A stretch of 5,051 nt of DNA from a virus. Its lineage: Duplodnaviria > Heunggongvirae > Uroviricota > Caudoviricetes. The notes beneath the pieces were generated by a model that saw nothing but the letters and a program-made list of their open reading frames with translations, had not been told where the DNA came from and searched no databases. How positions within the stretch are numbered: position 1 is the stretch's first letter; each line of letters starts with the position of its first letter. The stretch lies in IMG/VR virus record IMGVR_UViG_2563366929_000004; one strand, 5' to 3'. Shown in pieces: positions 1 through 5,051 of the stretch. A program made the translations under genes and the position numbers.

Positions 1-36
1 AGATAAAACACTCTCCAGGAAACCCGGGGCGGTTCA
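1..36 (+). mobile_element. Right terminal inverted repeat of an IS3-family insertion sequence (IS629-like); the element body lies left of the window
   Basis: The reverse complement of 12..36 (TGAACCGCCCCGGGTTTCCTGGAGA) matches 23 of 25 positions of 4846..4870 (TGAACCGCCCCGGGAATCCTGGAGA), which sits just upstream of an IS3-family orfA. Assignment to IS629 rests on recalled termini, not a search. Confidence 0.7.
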
Positions 37-803
37 ATACGGGAGAACTCATAACCGCAGTCATGACATCTGCCGGAATAGTTCGATTGAATTTGTTTTA
101 GCGCCGGATACAGTTCGCGGAATAATGCCTGTGAGCGGTTGGCATAATCCCATAGCCATACAAGGCTGTTTGCTTCTTTTGCAGAAAGCTCGTTGGTTTT
201 CTTCTCTTGTTTGCCGATGAACTCACCTTCAAGCACTACCCTGTGGATGTACTCTACTGCTTGTGGTATCTGAGATGCATCAAGCTCTTCAATACTTTCC
301 ACATTGAAACGCTGATGAATCATTGCATAAGCTTCTGGGTACATTAGATGCTTTTTGCTGACTAGCATATTTACAGCATCACGAAGCGGAGTCCTGTCAT
401 CAACAGATGTTTTCTTCCGTGCATTTGCTGCCTCTCCCTTTGTCCAGTAGTCATGCAGCACAGTAAAGCATTCTTCCTGGTACTGAATCAGTTTATCGCG
501 GATGTCAGCACGAACTTTCTCAGGGTTGATGCTGAACAGCCATCCATTTAACTTCTTCAAAGGAAGGCAGAGTAGCTTACGAAGCTTACCATCAGCGGCA
601 ACCATGTTCATATGAACACAGTTGAATTTGCTAATCTGCTTCATGAGTTTTGTTTGCTGCGTTGACCAGCTCATTCCGAGGTTTTCAACGATTGGCTTCA
701 TCGCAACATATGCAACTCCGGCAGCCATGGCGGTGATAATTTGCTGACCGTTGAATGGCACGTAAGAGGTGTTCACTGCTTCTAAAATTGCTATACTATT
801 CAT
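37..803 (-). CDS. ant: Phage antirepressor, P22 Ant-like; 3' end interrupted by the IS at 36/37, and the frame reads on into the IS
   Basis: ATG at 803..801 with GGAG about 9 nt upstream. The open frame runs to the window edge (translation starts [46 protein letters not shown]). It is not in the ORF track because no stop lies in the window. N-terminus recalled as Ant-like; position downstream of arc and divergent from mnt supports this. Confidence 0.75.
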
Positions 804-884
804 GTTGGTTTTTCTCCACGGATTTACCGACAACCGAAGCCCTGACTGTTCCAGCAGTTGGGGCTTCACTGTTTTGATTTCTTT
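804..884 (+). ncRNA. Candidate sar-like antisense RNA covering the ant ribosome-binding site and start codon
   Basis: Extended -10 (TGcTATACT, 789..797) on the + strand just inside the ant 5' end. An imperfect hairpin (836..867, GAAGCCC/GGGCTTC core plus wobble-extended stem) followed by the T-rich ACTGTTTTGATTTCTTT lies about 30-80 nt downstream. P22 makes an antisense sar RNA at the equivalent position. The 804..1035 arc-ant spacer has no ORF longer than about 10 codons on the minus strand. Confidence 0.35.
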
Positions 885-1035
885 GCCGCATCAAGCATCA
901 CTTCTGAAAACGTGCGCTTGCCACTGAATACTCTTTCTCTTCTCAATTTTTCGTTCGTGCCAAATGATTCGCCATGAACAAAATTTGGTCTTAAAATGGT
1001 AATCGCAATCTCTTTGACTACTGCATCCAAGCGAA

Positions 1036-1188
1036 TCACACCGTTACCCCCTCTCTCTTCAGGCTGTCTATCAGGCGCTTGATAACCTCTGAGTTAAACG
1101 ACCTGCACTCTTCCTTTGCCCTGCTACCGATAGCATCCTTTAACGACTGCGGCATCCTTACCAAAATCTTACTTATTTCTTTCTCCAT
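1036..1188 (-). CDS. arc: Arc-like ribbon-helix-helix transcriptional repressor (50 aa)
   Basis: ATG at 1188 is preceded by GGAGGG 5 nt upstream. The translation MEKEISKILVRMPQSLKDAIGSRAKEECRSFNSEVIKRLIDSLKREGVTV resembles P22 Arc (the RSxNSE motif and KxEG C-terminus). The ORF-track start at 1224 is a TTG extension with no RBS. Confidence 0.8.
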   Translation of the reverse strand: MEKEISKILVRMPQSLKDAIGSRAKEECRSFNSEVIKRLIDSLKREGVTV

Positions 1189-1224
1189 GTTACCCTCCAC
1201 GCAAACAACTCTTTTCGAATACAA

Positions 1225-1290
1225 AAGATAGCAAAGTGAGTATATCTAGTCAAAATTTTTTTGCATACACTTTGCTATCAAATTGAATAC
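1225..1290. promoter_or_regulatory. Divergent arc/ant and mnt promoter-operator region with a perfect 12-bp inverted repeat
   Basis: GATAGCAAAGTG (1227..1238) and its exact reverse complement CACTTTGCTATC (1268..1279) are separated by 29 bp. On the minus strand, -35 TTGACT (1253..1248), a 17-bp spacer and -10 TATCTT (1230..1225) overlap one arm. On the + strand, TTGCAT (1261..1266) and TATCAA (1276..1281) are weaker candidates around the other arm. Confidence 0.5.
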
Positions 1291-1302
1291 CAAAGGTGTT
1301 AT

Positions 1303-1551
1303 ATGGCAAAGGGTGTGTCAATTTCTCCAACTACGGTAAGAATCCCTGAATCTTTACGCGAGGCTCTTGCTGTCAGAGCATCAAAAAATGGTCGCTCTGT
1401 TAACTCCGAGATCGTCATGATTTTGCAAGCCGCGATTGATGAAGATAGGTCGCCAAAGTCAGTTGAGTCATTTGCTCAGCAAGAAGCTGATAAATTCAAA
1501 GAGGCGCTACTTGAGACGCTAAAGACCATGTATGCTAAGGATGAAAAATAA
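1303..1551 (+). CDS. mnt: Mnt-like ribbon-helix-helix repressor (82 aa)
   Basis: ATG at 1303 with AAGGTG 5 nt upstream. MAKGVSISPTTVRIPESLREALAVRASKNGRSVNSEIVMILQAAI... aligns by eye with P22 Mnt, including a similar C-terminal helix (...LLETLKTMYAK). It is divergent from arc. The ORF-track start at 1261 is a TTG extension. Confidence 0.8.
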   Translation: MAKGVSISPTTVRIPESLREALAVRASKNGRSVNSEIVMILQAAIDEDRSPKSVESFAQQEADKFKEALLETLKTMYAKDEK

Positions 1552-2087
1552 TGCTGCACACAATTCATTTCTTATGCCCTGTTAACACTGCCACTGTTGG
1601 GCAACTTCAGAACCACTGTCTCACCGCATTATCTCAAGGCGCAACTGAATTAAATATCCATATATCAAGTCAGGGAGGGGAAACTGCTGCTGGCTTTACT
1701 GCGTATAACTTTCTTAAGTCACTCCCTGTTACCGTTAGAACTCACAACATAAGCAATGTTGAATCCATAGCTAATATCGTTTTCCTGGCTGGCTCAGAAC
1801 GTTTCGCAAACCCATTATCAAGATTCCTGTTACATCCTCTATTATGGTGCTTTGCCTCCCCAGCCGCCGACCATGCCAGATTGAGAGAGTACGGGAAATG
1901 CCTCGATAACGATCTTGATCGCTTCGTTGAGACGTTCAATATCGACATCGGAACCCATATTAGGTGGGCATCCCTGATAGCAGACTCGACCATTTTGGAT
2001 GCTAACAAGGCTCTTGAGCATGGCATAATTAATTCCATAAAAACTGCAAGGCTGGCATCCAATCAGGCAAACTGGTGGGTTGTTTGA
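1551..2087 (+). CDS. ClpP-fold (S14-like) serine peptidase homologue, 178 aa
   Basis: The ATG overlaps the mnt stop (TAATG), with AAGGA about 9 nt upstream. By eye, ...LNIHISSQGGETAAGFTAYNFLKSLPVTVRTHNISNVESIANIVFLAGSERFANPLSRFLLHP... aligns with the E. coli ClpP core (YINSPGG...GQAASMGAFLLTAG...RVMIHQP). The candidate catalytic Ser (ESIAN) and His (LLHP) are conserved; an Asp lies near the expected position. Confidence 0.7.
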   Translation: MLHTIHFLCPVNTATVGQLQNHCLTALSQGATELNIHISSQGGETAAGFTAYNFLKSLPVTVRTHNISNVESIANIVFLAGSERFANPLSRFLLHPLLWCFASPAADHARLREYGKCLDNDLDRFVETFNIDIGTHIRWASLIADSTILDANKALEHGIINSIKTARLASNQANWWVV

Positions 2088-2110
2088 TGGGTAAATCATG
2101 ATTACTCCTT

Positions 2111-2138
2111 ATAAAAAACCCACCTGACGGTGGGTTTA
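2111..2138. terminator. Bidirectional Rho-independent terminator between convergent genes
   Basis: The stem AACCCACC (2117..2124) / GGTGGGTT (2129..2136) with loop TGAC is flanked by an A-tract (2111..2118) on one side and a short T run on the other. It sits between the ClpP-like stop (2087) and the YafO-like stop (2136). Confidence 0.6.
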
Positions 2139-2585
2139 GTCAAACATAGTGTTTCTAAAGTCTCTCGCATACCCTGCTAACACTCTCATTCTATTATGAT
2201 TGTTAGCAGACATGTGAGCTACAGGATGAAAAAGAGCAATCAATGAATACCTGTTCTCATCAAAAAGATTTTGTGCATAAACGAGAGCGGTATTGGATGT
2301 TTTATGCCACTGCAACTTTTGCGGTGTGCTGATATCTGTGCCATTTTTTATTGGCTCAAATTTATTTTCACCAATTGCTAAATGAAGGTGCATAAGGCCT
2401 GCATCTTCAATATCAGGAGGTCGATGATAAGAGGTGTCTCTGCCAAAATAGCTGGGCAACGTTCCCGTAGACTTGTAGATGATAAAATCATCTACAAGTG
2501 TTTGTTTTAAATCAGGAAACTCAACAAAAACCGGGGAGAAAAAATAGTCAAAACTATCCTGATTATATTCCACGGTTACTTGCAT
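2136..2585 (-). CDS. YafO-family toxin homologue (ribosome-dependent mRNA interferase family), 149 aa
   Basis: ATG at 2585 with GAGGT 6 nt upstream. Blocks ...DDFIIYKSTGTLPSYFGRD..., ...LMHLHLAIGENKFEP... and ...ALVYAQNLFDENRYSLIALFHPVAHMSANNHNRM... match recalled E. coli YafO segments (FISYKRDGVLPDIFGRD, HIHLANENNPFPP, LVYCQGAFDEQAWLLIAILKPEPHKLARDNNQM). Not verified by search. Confidence 0.7.
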   Translation of the reverse strand: MQVTVEYNQDSFDYFFSPVFVEFPDLKQTLVDDFIIYKSTGTLPSYFGRDTSYHRPPDIEDAGLMHLHLAIGENKFEPIKNGTDISTPQKLQWHKTSNTALVYAQNLFDENRYSLIALFHPVAHMSANNHNRMRVLAGYARDFRNTMFD

Positions 2586-2593
2586 GTTTTACC

Positions 2594-3160
2594 TCAGTGG
2601 AAGTTACCAGAGTGAAACACACGAGTCCCGTGCTCAGCAAGCGCACGCAAACCAGCCATATCTACGGAACTATCAAAAACAACCGGAACACATGAGCGTT
2701 GTTTAATAAGACTATTCAGGTTGGTTACGGCAGATCTGGCATCAGCAACAACGATATAGATATCTCTTGCGATCTCTTTAAAATCAGCAGAAGCTTCTTT
2801 GAATACCGATTTCATTGCCCCTTCAAGTCCTCTCAATTGATGCTCTATCAATCGAGACTTTTCTGGTTCAATGATAGACAACACATTGTCTACATTCTCA
2901 TCGGTAGCGTTTGCAAGAACACGATAAGCGTATTTCAGCATTCGAGACAATTCTTTAATCGAAGACACCGCCTCATGAAGCTCATCATTAGCCCGTTCAC
3001 TGCTGAATGAGGATTGATGGTAAGCGTGCTGAACGTTATCAGTAACAACCACCTCACAACTGAACGCAGAAGCTTGCTGTAATAGCAAACCTATTGCGAC
3101 TCCAGCTTTGGCAGCGTTCAAGCTAAACATTTCATCAATCCCATTAGTCTCATTGCTCAT
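2594..3160 (-). CDS. Hypothetical acidic 188-aa protein, upstream partner of the YafO-like toxin; family unknown
   Basis: ATG at 3160 with AAGGAGG 5 nt upstream. The ORF-track start at 3190 is a TTG extension. Its TGA stop (2596..2594) lies inside the toxin RBS (TGAGGT), leaving an 8-nt gap. No YefM/Phd, RHH or HTH signature is recognisable by eye. Confidence 0.65.
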   Translation of the reverse strand: MSNETNGIDEMFSLNAAKAGVAIGLLLQQASAFSCEVVVTDNVQHAYHQSSFSSERANDELHEAVSSIKELSRMLKYAYRVLANATDENVDNVLSIIEPEKSRLIEHQLRGLEGAMKSVFKEASADFKEIARDIYIVVADARSAVTNLNSLIKQRSCVPVVFDSSVDMAGLRALAEHGTRVFHSGNFH

Positions 3161-3227
3161 ACAAACCTCCTTCTTATCGGAGATTATCAATAGCTATGCA
3201 TCCATTGAATACACGCTATGCGCAATA

Positions 3228-3256
3228 AGTTTACGTCACGTGATATCATTATGCAA
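3228..3256 (-). promoter_or_regulatory. Putative promoter of the 188-aa/YafO-like operon with palindromes in the spacer
   Basis: On the minus strand, -35 TTGCAT (3256..3251), a 17-bp spacer and -10 TAAACT (3233..3228). The spacer holds overlapping palindromes TCACGTGA (3236..3243) and TGATATCA (3241..3248). A direct repeat GCTATGC (3193..3199 and 3215..3221) lies downstream. Confidence 0.4.
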
Positions 3257-3335
3257 CCACCGTTCTATCACCGACTAACTTTACTCCCACTCCTATACAT
3301 CATCTGGTATCCTGCGCAAAACTAAGGAGGTTGGT

Positions 3336-3686
3336 GTGAATGCTCAGTCTGTCATCATGGTTTTCCTTGGGCTGATTGTCGCAAAACTATATCCAGACTG
3401 GTGGAAAGGGGCATTAGCTACTGTCGCCATCTATTTGCTTTTATCCATCGTTAAGCGATCACTCGCTGAGACCGTAAATCAAGCAAAACGTTTCTCATTT
3501 AAGAGTTTAATAAACTATGTTACTGGGCTTATTTTTTGCCTTTCAATTCTGATCGCTTCGGCTTTTTTGCCCGTATCAATAGCTAATTTTTTTGGCGCAC
3601 CATATGAGGTAGGTTATCTATTCTCTGTTTCCTGTCTTGCCATTGCTCTTCTTTACCTGTGGACGAGATCAAAGAATAAAAATTAG
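3336..3686 (+). CDS. Small integral membrane protein (116 aa, about 4 predicted TM helices), function unknown
   Basis: GTG start at 3336 with AAGGAGG (3324..3330) 5 nt upstream. Four hydrophobic stretches (SVIMVFLGLIVAKL, ALATVAIYLLLSIV, LINYVTGLIFCLSILIASAFL, VGYLFSVSCLAIALLYLW) and a basic C-terminus (RSKNKN). Divergent from the toxin operon. Confidence 0.65.
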   Translation: MNAQSVIMVFLGLIVAKLYPDWWKGALATVAIYLLLSIVKRSLAETVNQAKRFSFKSLINYVTGLIFCLSILIASAFLPVSIANFFGAPYEVGYLFSVSCLAIALLYLWTRSKNKN

Positions 3687-3703
3687 CCATCCGTGGCTGC
3701 CAG

Positions 3704-4845
3704 TTATTGAGCTTCTTTTTGTGATGCCTGTGCGACTCTGGTGAGCGATTGTGTGACCGTACTGATCGCTCTGTCATATGCTGTGCTACCTTTTGGCGTA
3801 TTTGCCAGACGTAACAAGGCATTTCGTATAACAGGGCTTTCGTATGCCTTCGCAGCTCCTCCTACGACACCAGCAGCAGGAACAACAAACGCAGCCGTTT
3901 TTAGCATCCCCGCTAATACTGCTGCGTTTATGATGCCACCACCAACTAACAATCCATAAAGCTGCTGACCATTTAAGTTTTGAACGTTCGCTTTTGCCGC
4001 GTGTCTTGTATCGTTGAGGTATTTAATAACGCCGTCCAGTTCCTTTCCATGTACGCCTTTAAAGAAAGTTGCTGATTGCTTCCTGTTCCGGTGTAACGCA
4101 TTAATAAACTTTTCAACACTAATATTTCCAGACGGATCAGTCGCCTTATCTACAGCATTCTGAACTATGGCTGCTCGTGCGTTTTGCCTACCATTGTCAT
4201 CCAGAAGCCTGTAAAGCTGAGAACGTTCTGATGGGTTTTGGCTAAAAACGAGTTTTGTTACATCCTCAGGTGTAGCCTTGCCGCTGGCTATTGCCTTTTG
4301 AACGCGCGTTCTTCCCATCATGTCATTGAATCTAGCCCATGAGCGATCAACCCTAGACATATTGGCAGCTTCTTCTGAGCCTAGTTTTTGGGATACTGCT
4401 TTTTTCATATCCGCTGTATATGCCTTGTAGACAATATCGCTGGCTTTCTGGAGCGTGTCTTTATCAACAGTCTCGTTTGAATTCATGAACCGCTTTCGAA
4501 GGTCAGTTCTGTTTTCTCTCGCCAGACGCAGGTCATTGGGTCCGCTGGTGATATCGTCTTTAAATTGCTGCAAGACTTTTACCGCGGCTCTATCCTGAGA
4601 TTTGCCCGGGCGGCTTAACACGGCAATCTGATTGTCGATAGCTTTTACCGTGTTTGAGAGATCGACAGGGGTATCCCCCATAGCGTCAATTATGCGGTTA
4701 TATCGCTTTCCTGCTGCCTCAATGAATTTTTGTTGCCCTTTAGTCGCAGATTCATAAAGCTGTTTATCAGAAATGCCACCCAGACCATCGCTAAATGTTC
4801 TGACTAAATTTTCTCGTGCTTGTTGTTGATTCAGCCGATTCTTAC
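3704..4845 (-). pseudogene. 5'-truncated gene for a large phage protein (possibly a gp16-like DNA-ejection protein), interrupted by the IS at 4845/4846
   Basis: The frame stays open from 3704 up through 4845 and into the IS inverted repeat; the first in-frame stop upstream (4871..4873) lies inside the IS. The first in-frame ATG is at 4681, the 325-aa ORF in the track. The C-terminal part has a Gly/Ala-rich hydrophobic stretch (LYGLLVGGGIINAAVLAGMLKTAAFVVPAAGVVGGAAKAY). The product call rests only on position relative to the immI genes. Confidence 0.5.
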
Positions 4846-5051
4846 TGAACCGCCCCGGGAATCCTGGAGACTAAACTTCCTGAGAAAGAGGTAAACAGGA
4901 TGACTAAAAATACTCGTTTTTCCCCCGAAGTCCGTCAACGGGCAGTCCGTATGGTTCTGGAAAGTCAGAGCGAATATGACTCACAATGGGCGACAATTTG
5001 TTCCATTGCTCCAAAGATTGGCTGTACGCCGGAGACTCTGCGTGTCTGGGT
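4846..5051 (+). mobile_element. Left end of an IS3-family insertion sequence (IS629-like), running off the window
   Basis: Terminal repeat TGAACCGCCCCGGGAATCCTGGAGA at 4846..4870, followed 29 bp later by the orfA start. It is the inverted counterpart of 12..36. Confidence 0.8.
4900..5051 (+). CDS. IS3-family transposase OrfA (IS629-like), N-terminal part; partial
   Basis: ATG at 4900 with AGAGG about 10 nt upstream. Translation [50 protein letters not shown] matches the recalled IS629/IS1203-type OrfA N-terminus with its helix-turn-helix region. Confidence 0.85.

Follow-up and report, generated by a model that had tools for sequence, protein, structure and literature searches.

The immI region of phage P22 is the textbook case for ribbon-helix-helix repressors and, to our knowledge, its P22 version is the only one that has been studied. 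In P22 and epsilon34, the divergently transcribed repressor genes mnt and arc are separated by a gap of 90 bp with overlapping promoters, one palindromic Mnt operator (O_mnt) and one Arc operator (O_arc), and, because the promoters overlap, the single Arc operator controls both of them (PMC2724298). The P22 Mnt protein is a tetramer on one 17-bp palindrome, AGGTCCACCGTGGACCT. The present analysis concerns a 5,051-nucleotide stretch of Caudoviricetes DNA (IMG/VR record IMGVR_UViG_2563366929_000004; the whole stretch is called the window below), in which a perfect 12-bp inverted repeat is located between divergent Arc-like and Mnt-like genes. The two arms of the repeat are one site written twice in mirror image, and we lean, with some reserve, towards their being matching predicted operators of the Mnt-like repressor, placed around the -35 hexamer of the arc/ant promoter.

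A dimer of dimers is the usual binding mode of the ribbon-helix-helix class (PMC2724298, PMC3413123, PMC3325190). In the work presenting the 'ant moron' concept, many types of this element were noted, while their operators were not described (PMC2629481). The mnt-arc-ant locus of the Escherichia coli phage Kapi1 differs from that of P22, and mnt was undetected in its lysogen (2026 transcriptome, PMC12922286). A literature search, including one by protein accession, found no description of a paired mirror-image operator layout.

Comparison with the immI Region of P22

The window is the immI region (mnt, arc, sar and ant) of a P22-like (Lederbergvirus) E. coli prophage. Similar to P22 and epsilon34, it has the same gene order and orientation, the sar RNA and a homologous ant gene (84–97% nucleotide identity) for a P22-type antirepressor. 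Two ribbon-helix-helix repressors are encoded divergently, as mnt and arc-ant, and, according to the annotation of the prophage of E. coli ATCC 11775, the region sits between DNA-transfer and tailspike genes, as in P22 and as is typical for an 'ant moron'. The original prediction, made from the sequence alone, had already recognized a divergent Arc-like/Mnt-like pair; Pfam, Rfam and relatives of solved structure agree with it and place the pair upstream of sar and ant.

The arc/ant promoter has the same geometry as that of P22, and it agrees at 21 of 29 positions with the P22/epsilon34 segment that carries the annotations Pmnt/Pant and arcO. The intergenic gap, however, is 114 bp long compared with 90 bp in P22, and about 27 extra bp, including an A4T7 tract and the right arm, are present between the -35 hexamer and mnt. 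Instead of a single O_mnt and a single O_arc, two mirror sites flank the -35 hexamer, at -9 to -20 (left arm) and -50 to -61 (right arm) relative to the predicted arc/ant start, whereas P22 O_mnt is centred just downstream of that start. A 17-bp palindromic O_mnt is absent from the arc/ant start of the window (equivalent position near 1210), as is a symmetric 21-bp O_arc with TAGA boxes, and the window has not kept the overlapping P22 Pmnt (TTGAGA-17-TATCAT). The suspicion, voiced in the original prediction, that the layout departs from that of P22 was thus borne out.

Properties of the Inverted Repeat

The arms GATAGCAAAGTG (1227–1238) and CACTTTGCTATC (1268–1279) are exact reverse complements separated by 29 nt, or 41 bp from centre to centre, exactly as first described; the perfect match cannot be extended in either direction. 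Both arms are located inside the 114-bp gap. The left arm overlaps the 17-bp spacer and four bases of the -10 element of the arc/ant promoter, and its earlier placement there holds, since a sigma-70 consensus scan puts the promoter at 1225–1253, as its sole match (9 of 12 consensus positions plus the TG extension). Dinucleotide-preserving shuffling of the 114-bp region produced a perfect inverted repeat of at least 12 bp in 7 of 2000 cases, and shuffling of the whole window (arms at most 100 nt apart) in 13 of 300. By itself the 12-bp repeat is moderately unusual; it is notable through its position in a regulatory gap. One other such perfect repeat is present in the window, of 13 bp at 2471–2499 (ACTTGTAGATGAT aaa ATCATCTACAAGT), within the YafO-like open reading frame (ORF).

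Related loci were gathered from phage records, E. coli genomes, viral contigs, metagenomes and one Serratia genome, the latter being the one usable relative obtained in a scan of species-representative genomes with an Arc alignment. The region was found in 96 of 5426 complete E. coli genomes, in 53 of which positions 1210–1300 have the same sequence as in the window. Viral and metagenome contigs scanned for DNA patterns yielded no immunity types beyond A, B, D and E and a variant D2. Among the 27 distinct contexts of type A, that of the window, the arms match at 12 of 12 positions in 4 and at 11 of 12 in 23, namely, 19 with the right arm CACTTTGATATC, 3 with the left arm GATATCAAAGTG and 1 with GATAGCAAAGCG. 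Accordingly, the 'identical sites' of the original prediction exist in a minority of type-A variants, and most relatives depart from identity at one position; the perfect match is not a conserved property and is incidental. No compensating double variant restoring the perfect repeat occurs among the 27 contexts, so arm position 5 takes G or T independently on each side, a polymorphism that favours a protein site with one loosely read position over a hairpin.

Types A, B, D and E have the promoter core AGTCAAAATTTTTTTG in common and were aligned with the window without gaps (20 distinct sequences), while this core is absent from type C and from P22/epsilon34. In all four types the left 7-bp core (CAAAGTG, CACTGTG, CATCGTG or CACCGTG) ends 9 bp before the -35 hexamer AGTCAA, the right core (CACTTTG or CACTGTG) begins 14 bp beyond it, and the hexamer between them is invariant; the core starts are 36 bp apart in all 20 sequences. 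When the arms were scored as a stem over these sequences, 85.8% of arm positions were complementary, and 5 of the 12 position pairs change on both sides yet stay complementary. The covariation score was 0.351, compared with 0.149 ± 0.023 for shuffled data (0 of 500 reached 0.351) and at most 0.12 with a slid partner. In 13 of the 20 sequences the arms do not match at the central core position, which is expected of a CAC-N-GTG protein site and not of a stem. The two arms evolve together, the independent events behind this co-variation being few (about three transitions between types).

The Serratia marcescens locus encodes type-A Arc and Mnt proteins, with DNA identities of 63% for arc and 75% for mnt. 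The 80-bp block at 1217–1296 is identical to the window at 75 of 80 positions (94%), and the adjacent leader at 10 of 28 (36%); the left arm is preserved at 12 and the right arm at 11 of 12 positions. Since the first 60 nt of mnt are only 70–77% identical, the block has been kept by constraint and not by recent transfer.

Immunity Types and the Protein Probably Reading the Arms

DNA specificity of P22 Arc and Mnt is set by their first 9–10 residues, according to the account of Knight and Sauer (1989) given in PMC3413123. The reading strands of the window differ from those of P22 in both proteins (Arc, KILVRMP and PQFNLRW; Mnt, SPTTVRIP and PHFNFRM, respectively), and among the relatives the strands can be compared with the arms (Table 1). 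Types A and B have the common Arc strand (K/R)ILVRMP, K7R being found also with type-A arms in L032, L033 and L195, while their Mnt strands are SPTTVRIP and APYSVRMP; their arms differ as well (CAAAGTG/CACTTTG vs. CACTGTG). Between types B and D the Arc strand differs (RILVRMP and DCIVRMS, respectively), but the Mnt strands APYSVRMP and SPYGVRMP are similar and the arms near-identical. The arm classes {A}, {B, D} and {E} are the classes of Mnt, whereas those of Arc are {A, B}, {D} and {E}. This evidence points to the Mnt-like protein, left unnamed as the arm-binding protein in the original prediction, as the most likely reader of the arms. The proposal that one ribbon-helix-helix protein serves both arms fits their joint change over the four types, which tracks the N-terminus of the Mnt-like protein.

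The P22 operator AGGTCCACCGTGGACCT is centred on CACCGTG, the same 7-mer that forms the type-E cores, and the CAC-N-GTG pattern is found in types B and D. The sequence at this place is CACTGTG, CATCGTG or CACCGTG in types B, D and E, and in the window one half of the pattern is changed (CAAAGTG/CACTTTG). The cores CACCGTG and CACTGTG of the relatives match the O_mnt centre. The role of the sites would be the same as in P22, namely, repression of the antirepressor promoter in the lysogen.

Table 1. Arms and N-termini of the repressors in four immunity types.
Type	Found in	Left arm	Right arm	Arc N-terminus	Mnt N-terminus
A	window, many E. coli, Serratia	GATAGCAAAGTG	CACTTTG(C/A)TATC	MEKEISKILVRMP	MAKGVSISPTTVRIP
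B	O157:H7, O145:H28, phage 611R6	CGTATCACTGTG	CACTGTGATATC	MEKEVSRILVRMP	MTKVRDIAPYSVRMP
D	L129	AGTATCATCGTG	CACTGTGATATC	MMRKDVVDCIVRMS	MPKIKVRDISPYGVRMP
E	L130-134 and others	TACTACACCGTG	CACTGTGTAGCT	MKVRDIAPLGIRIP	MKGARDISPLGIRIP

A number of points weigh against the assignment of the arms to the Mnt-like protein. The link between arms and Mnt strands rests on two or three independent contrasts between types, and the operator and the 5' end of mnt are physically adjacent. By its position, the left arm is the homologue of the left O_arc half of P22 (9 of 11 positions identical; 14 of 21 for the whole operator), and homology alone would give it to Arc. The window cores are half-changed relative to O_mnt and their internal symmetry is poor: the 17-mers centred at 1235 and 1271 are symmetric at 2 and 3 of 8 positions, compared with 8 of 8 for P22 O_mnt. 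The departure of the type-A cores from CAC/GTG is confined to their outer halves, an odd feature if the reader is a symmetric dimer. No plus-strand promoter for mnt passed the consensus scan, TACACT, TATCAA and the P22-homologous TATCTA all being poor. The near-palindrome of 18 bp at 1268–1285 was rejected as proof of a two-part operator: at least 14 of 18 self-complementary positions, the value of the window, have a chance probability of 0.23 and are not significant (0.025 for at least 16 of 18, the value of the commonest variant). Finally, no operator of the Arc-like protein was identified anywhere, which leaves the model incomplete. A search for Arc-operator elements common to types A and B and to L181 but absent from types D and E yielded none; in L181, which represents variant D2, a type-D control region is paired with an Arc protein of the A/B class, and, its mnt being frameshifted, it is not a clean test.

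Roles are ascribed to the P22 residues Arg2, His6, Asn8 and Arg10, and the N-terminal arm of the Mnt-like protein of the window lacks an arginine aligning with P22 Mnt Arg2. In type E (L130-L134, L139, L168 and L173), the N-terminal strands of the Arc-like and Mnt-like proteins are almost alike, RDI(A/S)PLGIRIP, and in type C (L008-L010 and L063-L094) the Mnt-like protein bears the strand of P22 Arc (PQxNLR). These patterns suggest an exchange of reading strands between the Arc and Mnt scaffolds.

Both sub-sites are included in the mirror symmetry of type B. Type-B immI was found in the genomes of O157:H7 EC4115 (L006) and O145:H28 RM12761 (L007) between tail genes L and K (C40 peptidase), the host prophages being lambdoid and not of P22-like genome; arc of O157:H7 EC4115 is truncated to 36 aa.

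Alternative Explanations

It is rather unlikely that the arms are operator half-sites for the Arc-like protein, acting alone or together with Mnt and shutting off arc/ant and mnt at once. P22 Arc does repress both divergent promoters (PMC2724298), and the left arm lies in the stretch homologous to arcO/Pant and to the left half of O_arc, in the location of an Arc-type operator between the -35 and -10 elements of the arc/ant promoter; the right arm does not. In type E, the almost identical Arc and Mnt reading strands speak for sites shared by the two proteins within this family. Residues K-L-R of the Arc strand resemble K18-V20-R22 of AmrZ, the reader of GGC-AAAAC-GCC (PMC3325190), to which AGCAAAG may be compared. 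This analogy was rejected, since type B has the same Arc strand but arms lacking GC; types A and B combine one Arc strand with different arms, those of type B being without GCAAAG, while types B and D combine different Arc strands with near-identical arms. A symmetric Arc operator of the P22 kind at the homologous position was rejected as well: the 21-mer there is symmetric at 3 of 10 positions, and the TAGA/TCTA boxes, which in an Arc-type operator are inverted 4-bp elements spaced by 5 bp about a central base pair, are replaced by CAAA/TATA, which are not complementary. Bridging of the arms by a tetramer or higher oligomer, looping out about 29 bp with the -35 hexamer, as the original prediction had considered possible, is less probable still. 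The arm centres are 41 bp, or 3.9 turns, apart, with a spacing invariant in the four types, and the A4T7 tract between the arms could bend the DNA. The conserved 7-bp cores, however, are 36 bp or 3.4 turns apart and hence out of phase, and each arm has its own sub-site 10–11 bp away, which a tetramer of the P22 Mnt kind could fill without bridging. The invariant promoter and A/T tract explain the invariant spacing equally well, and the protein-mediated loops known to us are far longer than 29–36 bp. Looping is unneeded and not favoured.

That the repeat represents back-to-back promoters sharing an extended -10 element (TG-C-TATC..), with no repressor reading the arms, is improbable. Each arm, read towards its own gene, does contain TGcTATC, the left one as a TG-extended TATCTT and the right one as TGcTATCAA, but the right-arm hexamers (TATCAA, TATCAC and TAGCTA) lack the near-invariant T at -7 in every type, so a promoter role alone fails to explain the conservation of the right arm. 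The scan likewise gave no promoter on the plus strand, and the CAC/GTG portion, located outside the promoter elements, is nevertheless the best conserved and co-varying one. Pairing of the arms as a hairpin, either an RNA stem (in read-through from the late operon or in mnt transcripts) or a DNA cruciform, with the function of a terminator or attenuator, was rejected as very improbable. The 12-bp stem folds in silico (z-score -3.2 on the plus and -1.7 on the minus strand), and a short U run follows it on the minus strand. The loop, however, would be about 29 nt long, the stem is mismatched in most relatives with no compensation, its centre is unpaired in most sequences, types B, D and E would pair at just 8–9 of 12 positions (hand count), and no terminator was called. 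A chance repeat without function, for which the whole-window shuffles leave some room, is hardly credible in view of its rarity in intergenic shuffles, the Serratia footprint and the co-variation across types.

Proposed Regulation of the Locus

If the arms are operators of the Mnt-like protein, the regulation could be represented as follows. In the lysogen, this protein, probably a tetramer of two DNA-binding dimers by homology to P22 Mnt, would occupy the left arm and probably also the weak sub-site at 1217–1225. Occupancy from -20 to about +2 would block RNA polymerase at the arc/ant promoter and keep the antirepressor off. A second copy would bind the right arm and the adjacent core at 1279–1285, over a weak mnt promoter with the candidate elements TACACT (1266–1271) or TG-n-TATCAA (1273–1281), and next to an A/T tract resembling an UP element, 50–61 bp upstream of the arc/ant start. 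Binding there would result in negative autoregulation of mnt, which is the probable function of the right operator, and may add to arc/ant repression. The overlap of the right arm with a candidate mnt promoter, part of the original prediction, is plausible. The sequences themselves show the repeat, its place relative to the promoter (Table 2), the conserved geometry, the joint change of the arms and their link to the Mnt-like N-terminus, whereas binding and oligomerization of the protein, the position of an mnt promoter and the sign of the effect exerted from the right arm are what we infer.

The finer structure of the sites can be described tentatively. Pseudo-palindromic 7-bp cores repeat every 10–12 bp, at 1225 and 1235 on the left and at 1271, 1282 and about 1294 on the right, and 3 of the 6 matches to CAMNKTG in the 5-kb window are located within 1232–1285 (at 1232, 1268 and 1279). 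The sub-site at 1217–1225 spans the predicted arc/ant start, forms a direct repeat with 1285–1295 and is the mirror counterpart of 1279–1290. The right-hand near-palindrome is self-complementary at 14 of 18 positions in the window and at 16 of 18 in the commonest variant, with a dyad at 1276.5 symmetric at 7 of 9 positions, and is tentatively regarded as a candidate two-part right operator. Each side may be a two-part operator for a dimer of dimers, or each core with its flanks may be one Mnt-type operator. Arc, CopG, MetJ, ParG and AmrZ recognize short boxes one helical turn apart, and the core spacing of the window fits a cooperative dimer of dimers; unlike in those arrays, the two pairs here are predicted to form a dyad of about 70 bp around the -35 hexamer. 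The A4T7 tract, which has the sequence AAAAAAATTTT on the arc/ant strand, immediately upstream of -35, may have the role of an UP element or bend the DNA.

A 19-bp near-palindrome, TCTTTTCGAATACAAAAGA (1210–1228; 7 of 9 positions), is located at the predicted arc/ant start, and the equivalent sequences of types B and D are perfect palindromes, TTGTGAATCACAA and TGTGATATCACA; this stretch possibly serves as a third operator. Oriented like the left arm, two further degenerate arm copies were found at the mnt ribosome-binding site (AATACCAAAGGTG, 1286–1298) and at the mnt start codon (TATGGCAAAGGGT, 1302–1314), the latter being in coding sequence and hence of ambiguous conservation.

Table 2. Positions of regulatory elements and genes of the immI region in the window.
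Feature	Position	Strand	Properties
arc/ant promoter (Pant-like)	1225..1253	-	-35 TTGACT 1253..1248, 17-bp spacer, TG, -10 TATCTT 1230..1225
Left arm GATAGCAAAGTG	1227..1238		7-bp core CAAAGTG at 1232-1238
Right arm CACTTTGCTATC	1268..1279		7-bp core CACTTTG at 1268-1274
TACACT, candidate mnt -10	1266..1271	+	invariant in the 20 distinct sequences of four types; lacks a matching -35
A4T7 tract between -35 hexamer and right arm	1252..1262		almost invariant in four types
Conserved 80-bp regulatory block	1217..1296		both arms, promoter and A/T tract; 75/80 identical in Serratia marcescens L013
Putative outer left sub-site GAATACAAA, read as TTTGTATTC	1217..1225	-	predicted, weak; 10 bp outside the left arm (one helical turn)
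18-bp near-palindrome CACTTTG(C/A)TATCAAATTG	1268..1285		right arm and second core CAAATTG (1279-1285)
ant (antirepressor)	1..803	-	Pfam P22_AR_N 3.4e-45, P22_AR_C 2.9e-22; 97.5% identical to epsilon34 ant
sar antisense RNA	804..870	+	Rfam RF00262, 83.9 bits (gathering score 43), E 3e-17
57-aa ORF between arc and sar/ant	866-1039	-	PHROG 17642 (unknown function); overlaps the arc stop codon
Arc-like ribbon-helix-helix gene, 50 aa	1036..1188	-	first in the arc-ant operon; Pfam Arc PF03869 5.1e-12
Mnt-like ribbon-helix-helix gene, 82 aa	1303..1551	+	C-terminal extension; Pfam Arc 9.5e-11

Gene Content and Prophage Context

Bases 36–4850 represent the prophage adjoining tRNA-Arg and intS in E. 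coli ATCC 11775, from which they differ by one base, and a PHROG match to a DNA-transfer protein is located at 3704–4849. The gene sar is directly upstream of ant, across the ant ribosome-binding site, like in P22 and epsilon34. The Arc-like gene is preceded by the ribosome-binding site GGAGGG, and the closest solved relatives of its product are P22 Arc variants and AmrZ. For the Mnt-like protein the closest solved relative is P22 Mnt (1mnt; E 2.3e-6, residues 12–73, including part of the C-terminal extension).

Three genes are additional to those of P22: the 57-aa ORF, also annotated in phiv205-1 and 611R6, and the ClpP-like and YafO-like genes. The gene of the ClpP-like serine protease (1549–2087, plus strand; Pfam CLP_protease 2.2e-11) begins within the mnt stop codon, 1 nt in (TAATG), and probably shares the mnt transcript, so it would be expressed in the lysogen. 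A gene of a YafO-family toxin (Pfam 3.4e-22) is present in 2136–3160 on the minus strand, preceded by a 188-aa ORF of PHROG 8416 (unknown function), and these two may be a toxin-antitoxin or defence cargo pair within the immI moron. Between the convergent ClpP-like and YafO-like genes, the sequence AAACCCACC-tgac-GGTGGGTTT (2116–2137) resembles a two-way terminator.

The ends of the window, 1–35 and 4846–5051, are ends of insertion sequences (IS) of the IS3 family (TGAACCGCCCCGGG..), with an HTH_Tnp_1 ORF from 4900; ant is truncated at its 3' end by them, and the DNA-transfer gene is cut as well. The sequence ceases to match the ATCC 11775 prophage at base 35, and that copy has neither insertion; the left junction is present in strains such as FDAARGOS_1301 and B20123. 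With IS ends on both sides, the 4.8-kb immI segment is IS-bracketed and the prophage is defective in the source genome.

Biological Significance

The locus is most likely a new operator layout of a well-known phage switch, and not a new kind of system or mechanism. The variant is common, being present in the E. coli genomes counted above, and the related type B is found in O157:H7 and O145 prophages. It is conceivable, and is put forward tentatively, that it represents a distinct and widespread immI architecture of P22-like and lambdoid O157/O145 enterobacterial prophages, in which one repressor specificity is mirror-doubled around an invariant promoter core, new types arise by swaps of Arc and Mnt strands with matched arm changes, and the two type-E proteins compete for the same sites. 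In that case the family would be a natural series for how ribbon-helix-helix reading strands specify DNA sequence; replacement of CAAAG by CACAG or CACTG in both arms, together with a swap of the Mnt N-terminal strand, is predicted to convert type A to type B. The layout may also help to explain the restraint of antirepressor-driven induction and prophage cross-talk in pathogenic E. coli.

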